Below, piece by piece: positions 6,254-38,786 of a stretch of DNA of 38,786 nt; the stretch's first letter is position 1; each line of letters starts with the position of its first letter. Position numbers and translations under genes: made by a program. The notes under the pieces are model-generated. The model was given only the letters and a program-made list of their open reading frames with translations, was not told the DNA's origin and ran no database searches. Source of the stretch: an uncultured Candidatus Peribacteria bacterium (lineage in GTDB: Bacteria > Patescibacteriota > Gracilibacteria > Peribacterales > Peribacteraceae); the NCBI GenBank assembly GCA_964514855.1, contig CAZESZ010000001.1:1-38786 (forward strand), written 5' to 3'.

Positions 6254-6583
6254 ATGAAGTCCTCTCGACGTTTCACCGTCGCTATCGCCCTCAATGCATC
6301 GTTCATGGAGTTTGCGCATGCAGCCCCTCTCGTGATCTCAACCGGGGTGACGAGTACAGTCCCAAGTATCTTCAATGGCATCGTGAATACGCTTCTTCTG
6401 TGGAGCGGACTCGTCGCCACGGCCCTCTTTCTCTATGGGTGTCTCCTCGTGGTGGGTTCCGGTGGCAATGACGCAACACTCAGTAGCGGCAAGAAGATCA
6501 TGCAATCATCGCTCATCGGACTTGCCATCATTCTCTCGTCCTGGCTGATCCTCGCCACCGCAGTCTCTTTCATCGCTCCGTGA
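6254..6583 (+). CDS. Small secreted two-helix membrane protein, T4SS (TrbC/VirB2-like) pilin candidate
   Basis: 109 aa. Signal peptide, then two hydrophobic helices flanking GSGGNDATLSSGKK. Resembles short T4SS-pilin-family proteins common in CPR and Gram-positive genomes (recognised from memory, no HMM run). Confidence 0.6.
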   Translation: MKSSRRFTVAIALNASFMEFAHAAPLVISTGVTSTVPSIFNGIVNTLLLWSGLVATALFLYGCLLVVGSGGNDATLSSGKKIMQSSLIGLAIILSSWLILATAVSFIAP

Positions 6584-6589
6584 TGTCGG

Positions 6590-6598
6590 TGGTATACT
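6590..6598 (+). promoter_or_regulatory. Extended -10 TGGTATACT for the TPR gene
   Basis: Lies 10 nt upstream of ATG 6609. The same 9-mer occurs upstream of the LAGLIDADG-like gene. Confidence 0.5.
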
Positions 6599-6608
6599 GG
6601 GTATCCCC

Positions 6609-7196
6609 ATGCCGACCCCCCACGACGATATCATCGAGCATCTTCTTGATCAGGCCGAGCAACTGAAGCTCGAGGCCAGGCACGAGGAAGCACTCGTGAT
6701 CTTGGAAAAGGTTCTGGCGAAAGATCCGGAGAATATCGATGCGCTCGAGGAGATCGCCGATAACGAACTCAGTGTGGAACGGTACGATCGTGCTGAGATC
6801 GCGGCTAAGCGCGTTCTCACACTGGATGACGAGAGTTTCGATGCGTACTACGTTCTCGGATTCATCGCATCGGTACGCGAACAGTGGGACGCATCCGTGG
6901 AGTCGCTGAAGATGGCAAATAAACTCGAGCCGAATAATCCCGAAATCCTGCGCTGTCTCGGCTGGTCGCTGTTTTCCGCAGGAAAAACTTTGGAGGGAGT
7001 GGTGACACTAGAACGTGCGCTCAATCTGGAAGACTGCAATCCGCTCATTCTCTGTGATCTCGGAGTCGTGTATCTGAAGATGAAAGAATTTTCGAAGGCA
7101 CGTGCGCTCTTGGAGCGTGCACTCGAGATCGATCCTGAGAACCTCCGCGTGAAGGAATGCCTGGACATGGCAACGCGGATTGAAAGAAAGAAATAG
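6609..7196 (+). CDS. TPR repeat protein
   Basis: 195 aa of tandem ~34-aa helical repeats (e.g. AYYVLGFIAS.., LRCLGWSLFSAGK.., LCDLGVVYLKMKEFSKA..). Confidence 0.75.
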   Translation: MPTPHDDIIEHLLDQAEQLKLEARHEEALVILEKVLAKDPENIDALEEIADNELSVERYDRAEIAAKRVLTLDDESFDAYYVLGFIASVREQWDASVESLKMANKLEPNNPEILRCLGWSLFSAGKTLEGVVTLERALNLEDCNPLILCDLGVVYLKMKEFSKARALLERALEIDPENLRVKECLDMATRIERKK

Positions 7197-8268: not shown

Positions 8269-8934
8269 GTGCCACGCTCGTTTACCGATGAAGCCATCGT
8301 GCTCAGGAGTTACAACGTCGGCGAGGCGGATCGGTTTTGCGTGCTTCTGACGCGTGGCAGCGGACGCGTACTGGTGCGTGCGACCGGAGCTCGTAAGGTG
8401 CAGAGTCGGCGTGGGCGCGGACTGCTTGCGCTCCATCGCATCAGTGTGACGTGGCAGCAACATTCGTTCGGCAATGCCGTCACCGCGGCAGAATGCCTCG
8501 ACGCTCACAGCGCTGCGTGGCGAGACGCCGCACGATTTTCGTGCGCTGCGCAGGGGATCGAACTCTTGCTGACACTCACCGAGGACGGCTTCGATATGCC
8601 GGATGTGTACGACCTCACGGCCGAATTTCTGCGTGCGTGCGGCTCGACTGTTCCTACCGTTGCGCTTCGGCTGTATACCCTGAAACTTCTGAAGCTTCTC
8701 GGATATCTGCCATCTGCGGACTCCTCGCCCATACCTCTCTCATCGGCCTTCACCGAACTCCTCGACTCTTTGGATTCGATTTGCCTTACCGATGTCCTTC
8801 TCCCCACAGATGGGCTCTCCGTCGAAATTGGTCGTTTCCTTCAGGGTTTGCTCGGCAGCCAGCTCGGGGTTTCGCTCAAGTCTCCAGACGTTCGGCTGCG
8901 CATCTCCTCGGCCGTCACGCCGATCTGCCAGTAG
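8269..8934 (+). CDS. recO: DNA repair protein RecO
   Basis: GTG start 3 nt after the ftsX stop. N-terminal OB-fold signature EAIVLRSYNVGEADRFCVLLTRGSGRV..RATGARK. Confidence 0.75.
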   Translation: MPRSFTDEAIVLRSYNVGEADRFCVLLTRGSGRVLVRATGARKVQSRRGRGLLALHRISVTWQQHSFGNAVTAAECLDAHSAAWRDAARFSCAAQGIELLLTLTEDGFDMPDVYDLTAEFLRACGSTVPTVALRLYTLKLLKLLGYLPSADSSPIPLSSAFTELLDSLDSICLTDVLLPTDGLSVEIGRFLQGLLGSQLGVSLKSPDVRLRISSAVTPICQ

Positions 8935-10154
8935 AGAGGACGTGCCTCGTAGGCAGAATAAAATCTCTCGAGGACGCTGCCACTTCCCGGCATCGTAACC
9001 TCGCGATACCAGATCGCCTTCATGCCATCGTGACGCTCGCCAGCCTTCCTCTTTTCACCGACAGGGATGTCTGTCGTGTAGGAAATTTTCTCTTCTCTTG
9101 GCGCGGACACGCGATCGAAAATGTATGGCCCGAAGACGTCCGATGTTCTGTCATCATGTGTTCCATAGTAGATGAAGTACGCGCGATCGTGATCATCCAT
9201 CGCAGTTTGGATCAGCAGTGCGCCCGGTGTGTCGTTGCGGAATCTCATATTCACGTTCGGCGGATAGATGGTCGCATCCGTGCCCTGAGGGCTGTAGTAG
9301 CTGACAGCGTAGCTGTGATTTTTCCGTTGCAGGATGGGCATGCCGTATTCCCATGGTCCGCGGTACGCGGTGGAGCTTACTTGGCAGAGTCCTCCGCCGT
9401 AGTCGGGGAGTGTCGTATCGCCGTTGATGACCAACTCCTTGCGATAACCGGTTGCAGCGTTCACTGGCCCCAGTGTGTGATTGAATGAAAAAATACTTCC
9501 CTGAGGGATGATGTGCCCATTGAACTTCGAGAGGCCGACCTTGATATTGTGCCGCCTATTCACCGGTGATTGTGCAAAGACAGATTCACCGATTGTGACG
9601 ACTTCTTTGATACCGAGGCTTCGCAGCTCATCGTCGGCGACGTCGAGAGTCGGTTGCGTTTCCACGACTGGCATCGCGACTATCGAAATGCCTCGTTCCA
9701 GCGCTTGGACTGTCAGTGCTGCCGCCAACGCACTCTGGACCTTGCGACCAGTCAGTCCCAGGCCCTCAAAGATAACACTTCCGGATGCATTTTTCTTGAT
9801 GACGACACTCCCAGGATCGCGGTCGAGCTTCGATGAAATCTCGGTTTCGATGGTCTGACGGATGGAGTCTTCGTTCCATCCGGCCCTGGCTTCCCACGTC
9901 CACCCTGGTTCCTCGACATCGTCACCGCAGGTTTTCAAGCGTGCTGGCGGAATGGCTTCTACTCCGCGGTAGAGCCACACTCGTTTCGCTTCCCGCCACT
10001 CCGGATGCGCAGAGACTGAGATCGAGAGAATGTGATGCTGGTACGTGTACACAATGCTCGGCACGGTTGCGGACGCTGGCACCGCGTACAGCAGTAGACC
10101 GAGGCCGATGCCGAAGGACGCAGGTTGCAGACGCATGAACGGACTATAGATCAT
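8841..10154 (-). CDS. VanW domain protein (secreted/anchored)
   Basis: 437 aa with an N-terminal signal/anchor. VanW block FSFNHTLGPVNAATGYRKELVINGD...GGGLCQVSSTAYR. Its ATG overlaps the upstream RNase H stop (ATGA). Its 3' end overlaps the recO 3' end by 94 nt. Confidence 0.8.
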   Translation of the reverse strand: MIYSPFMRLQPASFGIGLGLLLYAVPASATVPSIVYTYQHHILSISVSAHPEWREAKRVWLYRGVEAIPPARLKTCGDDVEEPGWTWEARAGWNEDSIRQTIETEISSKLDRDPGSVVIKKNASGSVIFEGLGLTGRKVQSALAAALTVQALERGISIVAMPVVETQPTLDVADDELRSLGIKEVVTIGESVFAQSPVNRRHNIKVGLSKFNGHIIPQGSIFSFNHTLGPVNAATGYRKELVINGDTTLPDYGGGLCQVSSTAYRGPWEYGMPILQRKNHSYAVSYYSPQGTDATIYPPNVNMRFRNDTPGALLIQTAMDDHDRAYFIYYGTHDDRTSDVFGPYIFDRVSAPREEKISYTTDIPVGEKRKAGERHDGMKAIWYREVTMPGSGSVLERFYSAYEARPLYWQIGVTAEEMRSRTSGDLSETPSWLPSKP

Positions 10155-19755: not shown

Positions 19756-21081
19756 TTAGAAAAACATCCACCGAGATGCCATGATCCAGTACAGAACGAC
19801 GCTGAGAGAAATGTTGTAGATGGCCTGCATCCATTCCGCGGACGTGCTCTGTTCTTTTCTCAGGATCAGGAAGAAGGTCATCGGAACGAAGTAATAGCGC
19901 TGTTCGATGAGCCATGAGGGAAGTAGATAGAGGATGGTCATCGGGTACAGCAGATAATGAATCGGCTTACGGAATCGCGTGACGAGTAAGGATAGGAGCG
20001 CGAGCGTTGTGGGAATGAAGAAAAGCGTTTTCAGCAGCGGTGTCAGCGTGAAGTACGAAAGAATCCGATTTCGCAGAAAGACCGAATCTAGGCCCTGGTT
20101 GTAGCCGTGTGTGTTCACGAACGTCATCATCCCAAGGACGAAGAAGAGAACGACGATCGTCGGAGCGAATCGGTCTGTTCGCAGATACCGAAAAATTTTC
20201 TTGAGATTGAACAGGTGCATCGGCAGAAAAAGAATGCCCAAAAGAAACAGCAGAAAATACACGTTGCCCAGATGGAACGATGGAAACGGATGCGACTCTT
20301 TATCGCCGATCGCGATGCCGCCATTGAGCTTTATGAAAATGGTGAAGAGAAAAAATCCCAGGTAAAAAACAATGACACTGACGAGCAGATGTGCATTGTG
20401 GACCGTCGGTTCTTCTGCGCTCTGCCATCTACGTGCGAGGCGTCGAGTGCACCGCAGCGGTATCAGCGAGACGATGCGATGCAGGATGCCAGTTTCGTGA
20501 ATACAGGCGATGAAGAAGTATCCGAACCACACGATGTTATTTTGGCGCACGAGAATTGCGATCGCCGAAGCGATGCTCGCCCATGCGTAGCTTTTTCGCT
20601 CATGTGCATGCAGTGCAAAAAGAAGTAGCAACAGTGACAGAACGTCTGTGTAGAGCAGGAAAAAAAACGGAAGGATGATCGGTAGGAATGCGTATTGCAC
20701 GGTTTTTGCTACTGTGCTTGTCTTGTTCACTGTTTGTGCTGTTCGAAGAAAAACGAAGACAGATGTCAACGATAGAAGCAGGTTCACGAGTCGGTAAAAA
20801 GTGATCGACCGTTCTCCCATGATCGTCGATGCCACAGTCATGAAGGCGTGATATCCTGGGATCGTCGTCAGAGAGCCAGTGACCGTAAAGTTGCCATTCT
20901 GAAAACTTTCGATTTGCTCCATGTGAAATCCTTCATCGCCGAAGAACGTCGCATCCTTCACCCCGAGAAATGCGAGACAGAGAATGACGATAATCCCAAA
21001 CAGAACGATGGTCTGAAAATCTCGTTGCGTTGGAAGATATTTCCCTATCCATGCGGGAAGCGAGCGATGCATGGATTTCAT
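19756..21081 (-). CDS. DIE2/ALG10-like (GT59-like) GT-C integral membrane glycosyltransferase
   Basis: 441 aa, multi-TM. The blocks FGDEGFHMEQ..LTTIPGYH, LYTD, VRQNNIVW, NGGIAIGDKESH and EQRYYFVP match, from memory, the conserved blocks of eukaryotic ALG10. ATG 21072 is an alternative start (TGtGATACG 9 nt upstream). Confidence 0.72.
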   Translation of the reverse strand: MKSMHRSLPAWIGKYLPTQRDFQTIVLFGIIVILCLAFLGVKDATFFGDEGFHMEQIESFQNGNFTVTGSLTTIPGYHAFMTVASTIMGERSITFYRLVNLLLSLTSVFVFLRTAQTVNKTSTVAKTVQYAFLPIILPFFFLLYTDVLSLLLLLFALHAHERKSYAWASIASAIAILVRQNNIVWFGYFFIACIHETGILHRIVSLIPLRCTRRLARRWQSAEEPTVHNAHLLVSVIVFYLGFFLFTIFIKLNGGIAIGDKESHPFPSFHLGNVYFLLFLLGILFLPMHLFNLKKIFRYLRTDRFAPTIVVLFFVLGMMTFVNTHGYNQGLDSVFLRNRILSYFTLTPLLKTLFFIPTTLALLSLLVTRFRKPIHYLLYPMTILYLLPSWLIEQRYYFVPMTFFLILRKEQSTSAEWMQAIYNISLSVVLYWIMASRWMFF

Positions 21082-35331: not shown

Positions 35332-35349
35332 GTCTCTACTGTCTCTACT
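35332..35349. repeat. Tandem 9-mer GTCTCTACT x2 at the 3' end of the DUF35-kinase gene
   Basis: Read directly from the sequence. The second copy contains the stop codon (minus-strand TAG). Confidence 0.6.
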
Positions 35350-36256
35350 TCACGGCGACCAGATCGCGGATCGTTTCCACACAGACACCGAGTTCGTCAT
35401 TGATCAGCATGTGATCGAACAAATGTGCGTGATCCGTGAACGCTCGCAGGTCGGCTTCCGCAACTTTCAGCCGCTCGACGATCTGTTCCTCCGTGTCGCG
35501 GCCGCGCGTACGTAGGCGATGAAGTAGTGCCGAGAGCATCAGGCGTTTGCTCTTACCTGGAGGCAAAAGTCCGCAGCTTAAGACTGCGCGGCGGCCGAGG
35601 GAGTCCACGAGTCCTTGTAACAAATTAATCTCTGTCACGACGATCGGCAGCTTTCCCTTTTTCCAGATCGCTTCGATGTCGCGCTTGCGATAGCCGTAAT
35701 AACGCAGTTCTGACGCAGAAGGCATGTGCGTCCAACTGATAATTTCTTTTTTCGTCACCATCTCGTCGAATGCATTTTTACTCACGTGAACGTACGGTTC
35801 GGTATCGGTCTTCTTTGCGGCGCGCGTTGTCACGATCGGTACTTGCTCGGCGTAGGACCGAAAGAGCGTCATGAGCTGGCGTGCGATCGTCGTTTTTCCC
35901 ACGCCGGACGGCCCGGAAACGGCTAAGACATACGATGTCACGGTGAACGCTGGAGCAGTTTTCTTTTCGACGACGTCGTACTTTAGGTCATTGACGAGCA
36001 GGCCGTTGTCCATCGTACGGATGCGGCGCATGTGTGGCACGACGGTCGCACCGATGGCTGGGGCTGCGCTGCCTCGGGTTAGCTGGGCCATCACTTTCGT
36101 TCCATCTTCCAGGCGAATGAGCGCCGCGACGTACGGTTGCGTACCGAAACCTGTGGGTGGATGACGCACAACCGTAAAGCTTTCGATGACACCGGGCTGG
36201 AGACGTACCTGCTCCAGTTTTTTGATGCGCCGGTGGAGTGCGGGGATGCGGTCCAA
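35345..36256 (-). CDS. DUF35 OB-fold domain (no zinc ribbon) fused to a guanylate-kinase-family P-loop domain
   Basis: 303 aa with a TTG start. The N-terminal ~95 aa (GVIESFTVVRHPPTGFGTQPYVAALIRLEDGTKVMAQL..IGATVVPHMRRI) form a DUF35 OB fold with no Cys. The C-terminal part carries VSGPSGVGKTT, TTR, YYGY, LLPPGKS..RLRTRGRDTEEQI and LINDE, which are guanylate kinase blocks. Confidence 0.7.
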   Translation of the reverse strand: MDRIPALHRRIKKLEQVRLQPGVIESFTVVRHPPTGFGTQPYVAALIRLEDGTKVMAQLTRGSAAPAIGATVVPHMRRIRTMDNGLLVNDLKYDVVEKKTAPAFTVTSYVLAVSGPSGVGKTTIARQLMTLFRSYAEQVPIVTTRAAKKTDTEPYVHVSKNAFDEMVTKKEIISWTHMPSASELRYYGYRKRDIEAIWKKGKLPIVVTEINLLQGLVDSLGRRAVLSCGLLPPGKSKRLMLSALLHRLRTRGRDTEEQIVERLKVAEADLRAFTDHAHLFDHMLINDELGVCVETIRDLVAVK

Positions 36257-36298
36257 AGAAGTGAAAAGTGGAAAGTTGAAAGTGAAAAGTAAAAACAG
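36257..36298. repeat. 7-nt-phased AAGT array (x5) in the thiolase / DUF35-kinase spacer
   Basis: AGAAGTG AAAAGTG GAAAGTT GAAAGTG AAAAGTA AAAACAG. AAGT at 36259, 36266, 36273, 36280 and 36287. Abuts the TTG start at 36256. Confidence 0.85.
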
Positions 36299-36303
36299 AT
36301 CGC

Positions 36304-37446
36304 TTATTCGATGTTCTCAAGGAGATGAACCGTACAGGTGGCACCGACGCCGCCAAGGTTGTGGGCGAGCGCGCGTTTCACGTCCGAGACTTGGTTCTGA
36401 GCCGTGCCCGAGAGCTGTTTGAAACAGTCGAGGACTTGCTTGATGCCCGTTGCCCCGATGGGATGTCCGCAGGCCTTCAGTCCGCCGCTCATATTGATAG
36501 GGAGCGAACCGTCCAGCGCCGCGTCGCCCTGACGGAAGATGCGGATAGCGTCGCCTTCTTCGGCATACCCCAGGTCTTCCAGATGGATGAGCGTTGCGAT
36601 GCTGAAACAGTCATGGAGTTCCAGCGTATCGATGGAATTTTTGTCCCAGCCGGATTCGCTGAGTGCGCGAACAAACGCAGTGCGCGTACTGAGAAAAGAC
36701 GTCAGGCTCTCACGTTCGGTGAGGCTCAGGGACTCGCTTGCAAGTTGCGATGCTGCGATGCGGACCGTGGATTCTCGCTTCGTCGAAAGGATGACGGCGG
36801 CAGCTCCGTCCGAAATCGGCGAGCAGTCCAGAAGTCGCAGTGGATCCGCGACGAGCGGGCTCTTGCTGATGGTTGCGGCCGGAATCTCTTTTCGAAATTG
36901 CGCGTAGGGATTTTTCACCGCGGCGCGGTGCGAATTTTCCGAGACGAGGCTCAGGTCCTCACGCCTCAGGCCGTACCGATGCATGTACGCAGCGGCCGTC
37001 AGCGCGAATATCGAGGGGAACGTAAGGCCGGCTGGTGCATCTTTTTCGGCATCGCCAGCGCGCATGAGCGCACTCGTCACGATGTCGCTCGCAACGTCCG
37101 TGAGTTTTTCTGCTCCGATGACGAGGATCGTCTCAGCTTTGCCGCTCTCTAAGAATGCGCACGCGGTGTGCACAGCCAGACCTCCGGATGCGCAGGCCGC
37201 TTCCACCCGTAGTGACGGTGGACGATGCGGAAGCATGCTGCTCGCGAGTGTTCCGAGGTGCGCTTGTTCGGCAGTTTCTCCGCCGACCATGTTGCCGATG
37301 ACGACGTAGTCGATATCGGTTGGGAGAATCCCGGTGGACTGAATGGCGCCATCCACTGCCTCGCGGATCAGATCCGCAAGTGACTTGTTCCAGAGCTCGC
37401 CGAACTTCGTTTGAGCTCCCCCGAGGACGTACACGGTCTCGCGCAT
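36304..37446 (-). CDS. Thiolase (acetyl-CoA acetyltransferase), archaeal/SCP-x-like type
   Basis: 380 aa. Nucleophilic Cys in VEAACASGG and a C-terminal NLGGVGATC. TAGACT lies 12 nt upstream of the ATG. Confidence 0.88.
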   Translation of the reverse strand: MRETVYVLGGAQTKFGELWNKSLADLIREAVDGAIQSTGILPTDIDYVVIGNMVGGETAEQAHLGTLASSMLPHRPPSLRVEAACASGGLAVHTACAFLESGKAETILVIGAEKLTDVASDIVTSALMRAGDAEKDAPAGLTFPSIFALTAAAYMHRYGLRREDLSLVSENSHRAAVKNPYAQFRKEIPAATISKSPLVADPLRLLDCSPISDGAAAVILSTKRESTVRIAASQLASESLSLTERESLTSFLSTRTAFVRALSESGWDKNSIDTLELHDCFSIATLIHLEDLGYAEEGDAIRIFRQGDAALDGSLPINMSGGLKACGHPIGATGIKQVLDCFKQLSGTAQNQVSDVKRALAHNLGGVGATCTVHLLENIE

Positions 37447-37511: not shown

Positions 37512-37748
37512 CTATTGTTCACCTGAAAAAACTTGGTCAGCTATTTTTGAGGCTTGCAAACTGCTAATAGCCAGCTTTCTGATAATGTCATTCACAGTTG
37601 TCGATTCAGCGCTTGCTCTTGCGCGTATCTGCTCCATCTCGGATTCTGAGAAGACACTGGTAACGCTTTCATCATGCTTACGTGGCACATAAGTATTTAC
37701 AGCGCAGCCGAGTACATTTGGGTACGGTGATCGAGGGGAATTTTGCAT
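37512..37748 (-). CDS. Ribbon-helix-helix (CopG/MobC-like) small DNA-binding protein candidate
   Basis: 78 aa. VTSVFSESEMEQIRARASAESTTVNDIIRKLAI fits a strand-helix-helix pattern. Own promoter TTGCAG-18-TAATGT lies 8 nt upstream. AT-richer segment. Confidence 0.5.
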   Translation of the reverse strand: MQNSPRSPYPNVLGCAVNTYVPRKHDESVTSVFSESEMEQIRARASAESTTVNDIIRKLAISSLQASKIADQVFSGEQ

Positions 37749-37802: not shown

Positions 37803-38786
37803 TTACACATGCACCCTGGTCGACTGCAGATACTCGCCGTAATTTAGCTTCTTGGACTCTTTCTTCGTGACCGGTAATTCTGCGCCGTCATGGAGCATCG
37901 TGAGGACGAAGGCGTCTGATCCAGAACCCGAACCGTACGACACCACCAGCAGACGCTCATCTTTCTTCGCTTTCTCCAGGACGAAGCTGAGGCCGAGCGG
38001 TGAACACGCCGAGTACGTATTGCCGATGTGCGGAACGATGAATCCGGTTTCAAGCTGTTTCTCGGTGAAGCCAAGCCGCTTCGCCGCGACGAGCGGGAAC
38101 TTGGCGTTCGGCATGTGGAGCACGACGTGTGCGAAATCTTCCGACTGTAGATGCTCGCGTTGCATCATTTCTTTTGCCGCTATTTCGATGTGGTGAAAGT
38201 ACGCAGGTTCGCCAGTGAACCGTCCCGCGTGCGATGGGTGGCGGTCCTCGGCACCGCGCCAGAAGTCGGGTGTGTCTGTGGTGTAGGAAAGTGTGGCGTC
38301 AATGCGGCAGAGTCCGGGTTTCTTCTTCGTTGGGAGTCCGATGACAAATGCCGCCGCTCCGGCCGCTGCCGAATATTCCAGCGCGTCGCCGGGCTTGCTC
38401 TGTGCGGTGTCTGCGCCGATGGCGAGGCCCATCGTGATCTGCTTGCTTTCGGCCATCGCGGAGACGATCTGCACCGCAGCGGTTCCGGCTTTGCACGCAA
38501 ATTCCAGATCTGCTGCACGGCAGAATGGACTGAGCTGCAGCGCGCTCACGAGCATACCGCTCGTTGGCTTCACGGCATACGGATGACTTTCGGATCCCAC
38601 GTACACGGCATCGATCTTTTGTGGGTCGATTTCACCGGTGTCGATAGCCATCTTTGCGGCTTCCCACGCGATGGTGAACGTATCTTCGTCCGACTCTGGT
38701 ACGGATTTTTCGATGATGCCAAGGCCGTCAGCTTGTTCGGTCCCGCGCCTCCAGTGCGCCGCGATGGTCTTCGCCTCGATGCGGTT
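37803..38786 (-). CDS. HMG-CoA synthase, archaeal type (5' end beyond the window)
   Basis: The frame stays open from ATG 38651 up to 38786 (NRIEAKTIAAHW..EDTFTIAWEAAK-MAIDTG..). Cys in DLEFACKAGT and His in VVLHMPNAKFP. Confidence 0.85.
   Translation of the reverse strand, partial: NRIEAKTIAAHWRRGTEQADGLGIIEKSVPESDEDTFTIAWEAAKMAIDTGEIDPQKIDAVYVGSESHPYAVKPTSGMLVSALQLSPFCRAADLEFACKAGTAAVQIVSAMAESKQITMGLAIGADTAQSKPGDALEYSAAAGAAAFVIGLPTKKKPGLCRIDATLSYTTDTPDFWRGAEDRHPSHAGRFTGEPAYFHHIEIAAKEMMQREHLQSEDFAHVVLHMPNAKFPLVAAKRLGFTEKQLETGFIVPHIGNTYSACSPLGLSFVLEKAKKDERLLVVSYGSGSGSDAFVLTMLHDGAELPVTKKESKKLNYGEYLQSTRVHV

Follow-up and report, generated by a model that had tools for sequence, protein, structure and literature searches.

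A DUF35 and guanylate-kinase-fold fusion in the mevalonate operon of Candidatus Peribacteria, a candidate isoprenoid-monophosphate kinase

Which enzyme provides the second kinase for the mevalonate (MVA) pathway of Candidatus (Ca.) Peribacteria, and what is a protein with a guanylate kinase fold doing at the end of their mevalonate operon? Both questions are raised by contig CAZESZ010000001.1 (assembly GCA_964514855.1) of an uncultured Ca. Peribacteria bacterium; its 38,786 nucleotides, the whole stretch of DNA analysed here, are called the window below. Near one end of the window, next to genes for an archaeal-type thiolase and 3-hydroxy-3-methylglutaryl-CoA (HMG-CoA) synthase (HMGCS), lies a single open reading frame (ORF) whose product joins a DUF35 OB-fold domain to a guanylate kinase (Gmk)-like domain. 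We lean towards regarding this fusion as a bifunctional mevalonate-pathway protein, in which a DUF35 scaffold carries a Gmk-derived isoprenoid-monophosphate kinase, probably an isopentenyl phosphate (IP) kinase, acting as the second kinase of the pathway. The conversion of mevalonate to isopentenyl diphosphate (IPP) takes two phosphorylations on the C5 side and a decarboxylase step. In the 2016 genome paper on Peribacteria, the authors listed for Ca. Peribacter riflensis every step but that from mevalonate 5-phosphate (Mev-5P) to mevalonate 5-diphosphate (Mev-5PP), called the pathway ‘near-complete’, and annotated the fusion as gmk, leaving the gap in place (PMC4736985).

The fusion is real and under selection. 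The window carries it as one uninterrupted frame with neither stop nor frameshift between the halves (Table 1), and over 100 of the clusters listed, from independent assemblies, hold a protein of this two-domain make-up, so that assembly artefact, frameshift and chance are rejected as explanations. Among 5.8 billion proteins searched, 411 relatives were recovered; the best 120 of these 411 are nearly all 300–305 aa long, carry both Pfam domains and show 55–87% identity. They derive from independent NCBI, ENA, JGI and Logan assemblies, and wherever a source name bears a taxon it is Candidatus Peribacteria, Peribacteraceae or Peregrinibacteria, within the Candidate Phyla Radiation (CPR). A scan of GTDB with one genome per species, whose count of fusion-bearing species is a lower bound, yielded at least 10 loci matching from the N-terminus onwards, all of them Peribacteria or Peregrinibacteria save one metagenome-assembled genome labelled ‘Patescibacteria group’; the other matches listed cover the kinase part alone, at 23–33% identity. 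No fusion outside Peribacteria and Peregrinibacteria was found among the matches listed, and the survey of relatives that the first-pass annotation had called for finds the fusion throughout Peribacteria. Two Planctomycetota proteins with long apparent matches (L015 and L059) were rejected: they are canonical Gmks whose N-terminal extensions are unrelated, with PF00625 scores of 135–148 bits and no DUF35. In an alignment of 96 members, residues in both halves of the fusion are invariant, and the N-terminal sequence MDRIP... is conserved among the homologues, some of which have ATG at the position of the TTG start.

Pfam profiles recognise both halves, as the first-pass annotation had expected: OB_ChsH2_C (PF01796, the DUF35 OB fold) matches aa 22–72 (E 2e-11; 44.1 bits, cutoff 27.1), and Guanylate_kin (PF00625) matches aa 111–299 (E 1.6e-14; 54.4 bits against 25.2). 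The DUF35_N zinc ribbon (PF12172) is not among the families listed by the Pfam scan of the fusion. The DUF35-type N-terminus had been described as free of cysteine, and this holds for aa 1–100 of the window protein; a CxxC motif is likewise absent from the first 100 aa in all 96 fusion homologues (0/96). The guanylate kinase blocks named earlier, GPSGVGKTT, TTR, YYGY, LLPPGKS...RLRTRGRDTEEQI and LINDE, are all present, and the description given in the first-pass annotation proved accurate wherever it could be checked. An AlphaFold2 (AF2) model with a mean predicted local distance difference test score (pLDDT) of 84 consists of a short helix, a five-strand OB barrel (pLDDT 83–91), a disordered linker at aa 99–106 and a Gmk-like domain. 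The linker is the sole segment of three or more residues with a pLDDT below 50, and it is also the least conserved stretch in the fusion alignments.

The C-terminal part has the fold of a guanylate kinase, and in a site-by-site comparison it keeps the catalytic residues of that family and loses those that recognise guanine. The alignment set 86 canonical Gmks beside 96 fusions and 21 stand-alone relatives (the latter two forming a family of 117), with positions numbered after yeast Guk1, whose GMP-contacting residues we take to be those of the 1GKY and 1EX7 structures. The P-loop lysine K14 and the lid arginine R131 are as in canonical enzymes in 117 of 117 family members, and the lid arginines R135 and R146 in 116 and 105. 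In the fusion P-loop, G115, P116, G118, V119, G120 and K121 are invariant across the 96 homologues. The canonical phosphate contacts are largely retained: R38 is Arg in 108 members (87/96 fusions), R41 is Lys or Arg in 116, Y50 is Tyr in 102 and Y78 is Tyr in 100 (79/96 fusions). At the guanine contacts, S34 (Ser or Thr in 82/86 canonical enzymes) has become Ile, Met, Val or Leu, E69 (Glu in 83/86) has become Ser or Ala, and S80 (Thr or Ser in 77/86) is Tyr in 117/117; D100, as Glu or Asp, is the sole guanine-recognition residue kept. The conserved G103 (Gly in 83/86) is Leu in the family. The alteration of the GMP-contacting ‘RPGE’ stretch noted in the first-pass annotation was confirmed with a refinement: its second arginine is conserved as Lys or Arg, and its glutamate, yeast E44 (Glu in 78/86 canonical enzymes), is deleted in 117/117. 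From the retained P-loop, lid and phosphate residues together with the lost guanine contacts, the domain has the look of a working phosphotransferase whose acceptor is some phosphomonoester other than GMP.

Could the protein nonetheless be a plain paralogue of guanylate kinase that still phosphorylates GMP, its fusion to DUF35 owing to chance or to co-regulation? Guanylate_kin and TIGR03263 are its best family matches, its top structural matches are all Gmks (the best Foldseek match of the kinase domain being yeast Gmk 1gky, with a TM-score of 0.90 and a root-mean-square deviation of 2.1), and where databases do not call the fusion ‘OB-fold domain-containing protein’ or ‘hypothetical’, they name it ‘guanylate kinase’, as do JGI and some NCBI records. 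Its scores, however, fall far under the Gmk equivalog cutoffs (TIGR03263, 87.2 bits against 160.45; NF011325, 52.1 against 263; NF011324, 36.6 against 318), and PF00625 gives 54 bits, against 135–148 bits in two canonical Gmks. When the kinase part was searched against 1.84 billion representatives, members of the Gmk-like family scored at least 98 bits and all other proteins at most 83. The complete genome of Ca. P. riflensis encodes a canonical 200-aa gmk (gene 213; K00942, 157.7 bits) in addition to its 312-aa fusion, which is annotated gmk (gene 643; K00942, 103.7 bits) and lies directly after the thiolase gene 642, so the fusion is not the only gmk there (PMC4736985). No canonical gmk was seen near the operon in about 361 kb of Peribacteria loci, an uninformative result given that these loci extend about 10 kb on either side of the gene. 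The separate gmk, the low model scores and the loss of the guanine pocket throughout the family argue that the fusion is not the guanylate kinase of the cell, and a housekeeping role was rejected; with the tight, conserved linkage to isoprenoid genes in two gene arrangements described below, continued action on GMP seems very improbable.

The likeness to Gmk (PF00625, TIGR03263; 1GKY/1EX7 and E. coli 2ANB) thus extends to the fold, the P-loop GPSG.GK(T/S)T, the lid arginines and the four acceptor-phosphate residues, and perhaps to the chemistry, as the conversion of ATP and a phosphomonoester to a diphosphate is what we propose for the fusion as well. It differs from Gmk in the replaced guanine residues, the deletion of E44, the change of G103 to Leu, about six extra residues at the start of the lid (PPGKSKRLMLSALLHRLRTRG), the fused DUF35 domain and the coexistence of a true gmk. 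Two other enzymes offer points of comparison. PhnN (ribose 1,5-bisphosphate phosphokinase), itself of the Gmk family, is a Gmk fold retargeted to a non-nucleotide phosphomonoester and yields a diphosphate (PRPP); the fusion has a weak lid-region match to the corresponding model (TIGR02322, 24.5 bits, far under the cutoff of 156), and its gene context is isoprenoid rather than phosphonate metabolism. Animal phosphomevalonate kinase (PMK, also PMVK), which has an NMP-kinase-like P-loop fold, shows that a kinase of this type can take over the phospho-to-diphospho step of the mevalonate pathway. A specific kinship to either enzyme was considered and found unsupported: the PhnN match is weak, and no PMK occurs among the PDB sequence matches at E ≤1e-3 or among the top 50 Foldseek matches of the fusion, whose substrate probably also differs from that of PMK.

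The genes around the fusion suggest another substrate. In the window it directly follows HMGCS and thiolase, as reported in the first-pass annotation, and the same holds in all loci examined. Genes farther upstream are not visible because the contig ends inside HMGCS, whose frame tblastn follows to position 38786 without a stop. The two close relatives with loci reaching farther upstream, L003 and L006, share 77% identity, and both have an order conserved in seven loci (L003, L006, L008, L010, L011, L013 and L014): IDI type 1, UPPS (a cis-prenyltransferase), a GHMP kinase, a decarboxylase, HMG-CoA reductase (HMGR), HMGCS, thiolase and the fusion. HMGCS, thiolase and fusion alone were detected in L005, the closest relative among the matches listed (86% identity). 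The GHMP kinase, of about 265 aa, resembles mevalonate kinase (MVK): it scores 84 bits with TIGR00549 over the full model length, and its sole PDB matches are MVKs. The Gmk-like domain is then the only unassigned kinase in the operon, and it would have the right type of chemistry for the gap, from phosphate to diphosphate. Ca. P. riflensis has one MVK-like gene (637) and one decarboxylase (639), and its annotation table lists neither K00938 (PMK) nor K06981 (IP kinase, IPK) nor any other GHMP kinase (PMC4736985), so that a complete canonical set of mevalonate kinases was not found. A break between the two halves, standing as the only gmk, absence from all relatives and a complete kinase set elsewhere in the genome had been named in advance as speaking against a scaffold-tethered kinase; each was looked for, and none was encountered. 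We consider it quite likely that the Gmk-like domain is an isoprenoid-pathway phosphomonoester kinase of some kind, and it would fill the place of the second kinase, which is otherwise missing from the operon.

The decarboxylase of the operon bears on which monophosphate this kinase might accept. Its best PDB match is 6n0x (173 bits), the phosphomevalonate decarboxylase (PMD) of Anaerolinea thermophila bound to mevalonate 5-phosphate; true diphosphomevalonate decarboxylases (DMDs) reach at most 132 bits. Within the aligned region, two positions set the variant 6n0z apart from 6n0x (YWGN to YWGK and GHALA to GMALA), and there the true DMDs 2hk2, 6n10 and 6xr5 have K and M. All seven operon decarboxylases (7/7) carry KYWGN and (S/T)EGH, that is, N and H as in 6n0x. 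Dellas et al. (2013) count loss of Lys21 (S. epidermidis), which contacts the terminal phosphate, among the hallmarks of phosphomevalonate-specific enzymes, and according to PMC9254496 mutagenesis has turned the specificity of PMD into that of DMD. The difference between 6n0x and 6n0z, Table 4 of Dellas et al. and the statement in PMC9254496 together suggest that the two Asn/His positions determine PMD versus DMD specificity. The annotation ‘diphosphomevalonate decarboxylase’ is probably wrong for Peribacteria, and the enzyme may be a phosphomevalonate decarboxylase. As its Asn/His signature is that of the Anaerolinea PMD, isopentenyl phosphate would be the intermediate, and on balance we favour a route from MVK through PMD to isopentenyl phosphate and on to a kinase.

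The acceptor pocket of the Gmk-like domain seems compatible with this route. Being hydrophobic (I/M/L, A/S, Y, L) and keeping an acidic residue at the D100 position, the rebuilt pocket would accommodate an isopentenyl tail more readily than a phosphomevalonate carboxylate, and an IPK is more likely than a PMK as the role of the domain; in absolute terms, we regard the chances that it is an isopentenyl phosphate kinase as about evenly balanced. In the mechanism proposed, the DUF35 OB-fold third of the protein would bridge thiolase and HMGCS in spite of its missing zinc ribbon, and the Gmk-fold part would bind ATP and a phosphomonoester in a guanine pocket rebuilt to be smaller and mostly hydrophobic. 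The ATP gamma-phosphate would then pass to an isoprenoid monophosphate, most likely from IP to IPP and less likely to mevalonate 5-phosphate. The whole pathway would run through thiolase/HMGCS/DUF35, HMGR, the MVK-like GHMP kinase, the phosphomevalonate decarboxylase and the Gmk-like kinase to IDI and UPPS.

An enzyme of this kind would be an analogue of the canonical IPK found in archaea, Chloroflexi, plants and some CPR bacteria. The two would share a reaction (IP + ATP to IPP + ADP) and a place in the pathway, after a phosphomevalonate decarboxylase, and canonical CPR IPKs likewise cluster with IDI or MVA genes. The folds, however, are unrelated (amino-acid kinase versus the NMP-kinase-like P-loop fold of the fusion) and there is no sequence similarity; membership in the canonical IPK family, which is marked by the amino-acid-kinase fold and an IPK-specific catalytic His, was rejected on this ground. 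Hoshino and Gaucher describe canonical IPK in the CPR as mostly confined to Microgenomates and as tending to adjoin IDI or MVA genes, and the recruitment of a different protein as IPK in Peregrinibacteria would fit such a confinement.

The Gmk-like subfamily is not limited to fusions. A representative search recovered stand-alone members of about 200 aa with the same pocket substitutions, and in seven of the eight contexts examined they follow UPPS, sometimes a trans-polyprenyl synthase, and then a His_Phos_1 gene, which in three of these contexts overlaps the kinase gene (Table 1). GuaA on one of the stand-alone contigs is 65–70% identical to that of named Peribacteria, which places the host of the stand-alone kinases in a sister lineage of the same group. 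From the operon fusion and the stand-alone contexts together, the Gmk-like kinase is tied to isoprenoid genes in two arrangements. A broader proposal is that these proteins form a new Gmk-derived enzyme family that is the IPK of Peribacteria, completing an MVA pathway of the Chloroflexi/haloarchaea type, tethered to a scaffold in most of the class, where the first two enzymes and the last kinase would come together in a single particle, and free but paired with His_Phos_1 in the sister lineage; this we put forward tentatively, as a possibility to which we incline somewhat less than halfway. In some stand-alone contigs the gene before UPPS is a dPGM-like His_Phos_1 and in others an iPGM, which looks like a non-orthologous swap at one locus.

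In archaea, DUF35 bridges thiolase and HMG-CoA synthase. The profile of the fusion family matches residues 40–125 of chain 6esq_E (E 2e-8), named ‘Pfam DUF35’ by its depositors, in an entry that we take to be the thiolase/HMGCS/DUF35 complex of Methanothermococcus thermolithotrophicus; the match covers the OB part and not the zinc ribbon. A second match is to the ChsH2 DUF35 chain 6ok1_B (E 3.5e-4). With the archaeal DUF35 subunit (6ESQ/6ET9) the fusion shares the OB fold and the gene position directly after archaeal-type thiolase and HMGCS; unlike that subunit, it lacks an N-terminal Cys4 zinc ribbon and has a 200-aa C-terminal kinase. As the annotation of the complete Ca. P. riflensis genome contains no second DUF35, the N-terminal domain is presumably still the partner of thiolase and HMGCS. 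The first-pass annotation had suggested that the fusion tethers a phosphotransferase to the channelling complex, either a non-orthologous mevalonate-pathway kinase or a Gmk recruited for another reason. The first of these is supported and has been sharpened; the fusion is unlikely to channel an intermediate directly, because the thiolase/HMGCS and kinase steps are at least three reactions apart. The fusion may instead provide co-expression and co-localisation in fixed proportion, possibly within a loose pathway assembly.

Several observations weigh against the assignment as an isopentenyl phosphate kinase. The assignment draws on gene context and pocket-lining residues, the equivalents of R38 and Y78 show some variation in the fusions, as the counts above indicate, and there is no evident mechanistic need to fuse a kinase of a late step to the scaffold of the first two. 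Curated models also read the decarboxylase differently. The operon decarboxylase passes the DMD equivalog TIGR01240 (190 bits against 171) and fails the PMD model NF040704 (113 bits against 475); taken at face value, these models would call it a classical DMD, and the missing kinase would therefore be a PMK. The Gmk-like domain would then convert Mev-5P to Mev-5PP and feed a classical DMD, much as animal PMK does with its unrelated NMP-kinase-like P-loop fold. Such a role would agree with the KEGG-based annotation of Ca. P. riflensis, in which the decarboxylase is MVD and the unlisted step is precisely that from Mev-5P to Mev-5PP (PMC4736985), and with the retention of the phosphate-acceptor residues in the kinase. 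We nevertheless consider it unlikely, in view of the Asn/His pair in 7/7 operon decarboxylases where true DMDs have Lys/Met, the best PDB match of the decarboxylase to a PMD, the hydrophobic pocket and acidic residue at the D100 position, which would suit a carboxylate substrate poorly, and the stand-alone homologues, which adjoin prenyl-chain synthases and not a decarboxylase. One locus complicates the inventory of kinases. In L001 the usual decarboxylase is replaced by a cassette on the opposite strand; this encodes a bona fide MVK of 329 aa and another decarboxylase, which has a KYMGR motif and shares about 30% identity with the usual enzyme. Here the GHMP protein of about 265 aa could be a PMK, and the pathway could be complete without the Gmk-like domain.

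The isopentenyl phosphate kinase might also be another protein. Gene 735 of Ca. P. riflensis encodes an orphan ProB-like protein of the amino-acid-kinase family (265 aa; 174 bits to the proB KEGG orthology model, below its threshold), and neither proA nor proC was found in the annotation table of that genome (PMC4736985); it could be a divergent IPK and is the main alternative candidate for that activity. The Gmk-like domain would in that case have some other role, as a kinase of longer prenyl phosphates, one half of an IP/IPP kinase–phosphatase pair, a PhnN-like sugar-bisphosphate kinase or a non-catalytic ligand-binding module like the GK domain of MAGUK proteins. Phosphatase genes do recur beside the kinase: the overlapping His_Phos_1 genes of the stand-alone loci, a HAD-IIA gene between the MVK-like gene and the decarboxylase of L011, an ORF in the same slot of L008 that resembles it by eye, and an IMPase-like gene in L001; in Ca. 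P. riflensis that slot is occupied by gene 638 (PMC4736985). They hint at a kinase–phosphatase pair acting on isoprenoid phosphates, and leave room for a regulatory IP/IPP cycle or for another substrate. The homologue in Ca. Kentrum sp. (Gammaproteobacteria), probably acquired by horizontal transfer, has no recognisable isoprenoid neighbours; no DUF35-like gene was found upstream of it, where there is a 128-aa ORF without a Pfam match. The weak lid-region match to PhnN, and an invariant proline one residue before the position at which a Ser-to-Pro change turns yeast Gmk into a binding domain (title of 4f4j), are also in keeping with such roles. Catalysis is argued for by the invariant P-loop lysine and the invariant or nearly invariant lid arginines. 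The ProB-like gene, in turn, lies about 105 kb from the operon and, at 174 bits to the proB model, resembles real glutamate kinases, and the operon would encode every step if, and only if, the Gmk-like domain is the second kinase. We judge these other roles, taken together, improbable, and continue to prefer an isoprenoid-monophosphate kinase tethered to the DUF35 scaffold.

We found no relevant full-text literature on DUF35 together with guanylate kinase, on PMK in the Candidate Phyla Radiation or on IPK together with guanylate kinase, and, among the papers searched, no description of the architecture, of which the first-pass annotation had likewise known none. The fusion would represent a kinase of the Gmk fold whose acceptor pocket has been rebuilt and which is set in a new DUF35 architecture, plausibly a non-orthologous replacement of IPK. 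Confirmation of this role would put a name to the missing kinase of the Peribacteria mevalonate pathway. It would also add a third unrelated fold for the synthesis of C5 diphosphates, after the GHMP and amino-acid-kinase folds, in parallel with the P-loop PMK of animals. If Peribacteria use the phosphomevalonate decarboxylase route, this would bear on scenarios for the origin of the pathway in the CPR, archaea and the last universal common ancestor. The family could serve as a model for enzyme evolution, showing the substitutions by which a nucleotide kinase comes to act on a non-nucleotide phosphomonoester, and a small soluble IP kinase would be of interest for engineering isopentenol-utilisation pathways. 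Meanwhile, the labels ‘guanylate kinase’ and ‘OB-fold domain-containing protein’ are misleading for the fusion proteins.

Table 1. Coordinates of the fusion, of its neighbours in the window and of features in related loci.
Feature	Location	Strand	Description or basis
Whole fusion ORF	window, 35345..36256	minus	303 aa; TTG start 36254-36256, stop 35345-35347; ORF listing and sequence
N-terminal DUF35 part, aa 1-98	window, 35963..36256	minus	helix aa 4-16, OB-fold barrel aa 22-97; without zinc ribbon
Inter-domain linker, aa 99-106	window, 35939..35962	minus	AF2 pLDDT and alignment
Gmk-fold kinase domain, aa 107-303	window, 35348..35938	minus	PF00625, TIGR03263, Foldseek, site-by-site alignment
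P-loop GPSGVGKTT, aa 115-123	window, 35888..35914	minus	alignment of 96 homologues
Spacer, thiolase stop to TTG start	window, 36257..36303	minus	47 nt; 7-nt periodic pyrimidine-rich array, read from the sequence
Archaeal-type acetoacetyl-CoA thiolase	window, 36304..37446	minus	380 aa; Thiolase_N and Thiolase_C_1; presumed partner of the DUF35 domain
ORF between HMGCS and thiolase	window, 37512-37748	minus	78 aa; no Pfam match
Archaeal-type HMG-CoA synthase	window, 37803..38786	minus	NF003274, 356 bits against cutoff 244; N-terminus cut by contig end
DIE2/ALG10 glycosyltransferase-family ORF	window, 19756-21081	minus	441 aa; PF04922, E 4.8e-38; adjoins PMT_2-like and GT2/GT4 genes
Decarboxylase	L003, 5456-6430		KYWGN, (S/T)EGH; equivalents in L006, L008, L010, L011, L013, L014
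Extra cassette	L001, 2601-5592	minus	opposite strand; 329-aa MVK, decarboxylase, 321-aa protein without family match; replaces usual decarboxylase
IMPase-like gene	L001, 6803-7573		between HMGR and HMGCS
HAD-IIA (NagD-like) gene	L011, 4530-5390	minus	between MVK-like gene and decarboxylase
ORF resembling HAD-IIA by eye	L008, 3570-4622	minus	same slot as in L011
His_Phos_1 and stand-alone kinase	L086, 9490-10642
His_Phos_1 and stand-alone kinase	L087, 9355-10651
His_Phos_1 and stand-alone kinase	L088, 2034-3283
His_Phos_1 and stand-alone kinase	L090, 5073-6187
His_Phos_1 and stand-alone kinase	L091, 8817-10060
His_Phos_1 and stand-alone kinase	L092, 1778-3015
Stand-alone homologue, Ca. Kentrum sp. 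(Gammaproteobacteria)	L085, 5804-6439		neighbours: MazE/PIN toxin-antitoxin and sulfotransferase genes

The thiolase upstream of the fusion scores 421.8 bits with NF004720 (cutoff 420) and 372.8 bits with NF053570 (AcCoTHIOL_METTL, an acetyl-CoA acetyltransferase model). Between its stop codon and the TTG start of the fusion, the spacer consists of the units CACTTTT, CACTTTC, AACTTTC, CACTTTT and CACTTC, in agreement with the heptad repeat array that had been reported immediately before the start, and no obvious Shine-Dalgarno sequence was seen in these 47 nt. The same 7-nt array precedes a TTG start in L003 (about 9956–10000), and a related array precedes an ATG start in L005 (about 8432–8477); in L006 and L001 the thiolase and fusion genes abut and the array is absent. 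Where present, the array could act as an element of translation initiation or coupling.

The slot between HMGCS and thiolase, which in the window holds the 78-aa ORF, varies among relatives. In L005 it contains a gene for a 291-aa Bro-N-domain protein of a phage-antirepressor-like family (6317–7192), and in L003 it measures just 68 nt; it looks like a place within the operon where insertions are frequent.

The remaining genes of the window are ordinary bacterial housekeeping and cell-envelope genes, including those for PBP1, PheT, an S41 protease, glycosyltransferases and a cysteine desulfurase. The 441-aa ORF of Table 1 matches the DIE2/ALG10 family (PF04922), which we take to be a family of eukaryotic N-glycan glucosyltransferases and which is unusual in a bacterium. 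It may be tied to polyprenol-linked glycosylation fed by the MVA/UPPS operon.

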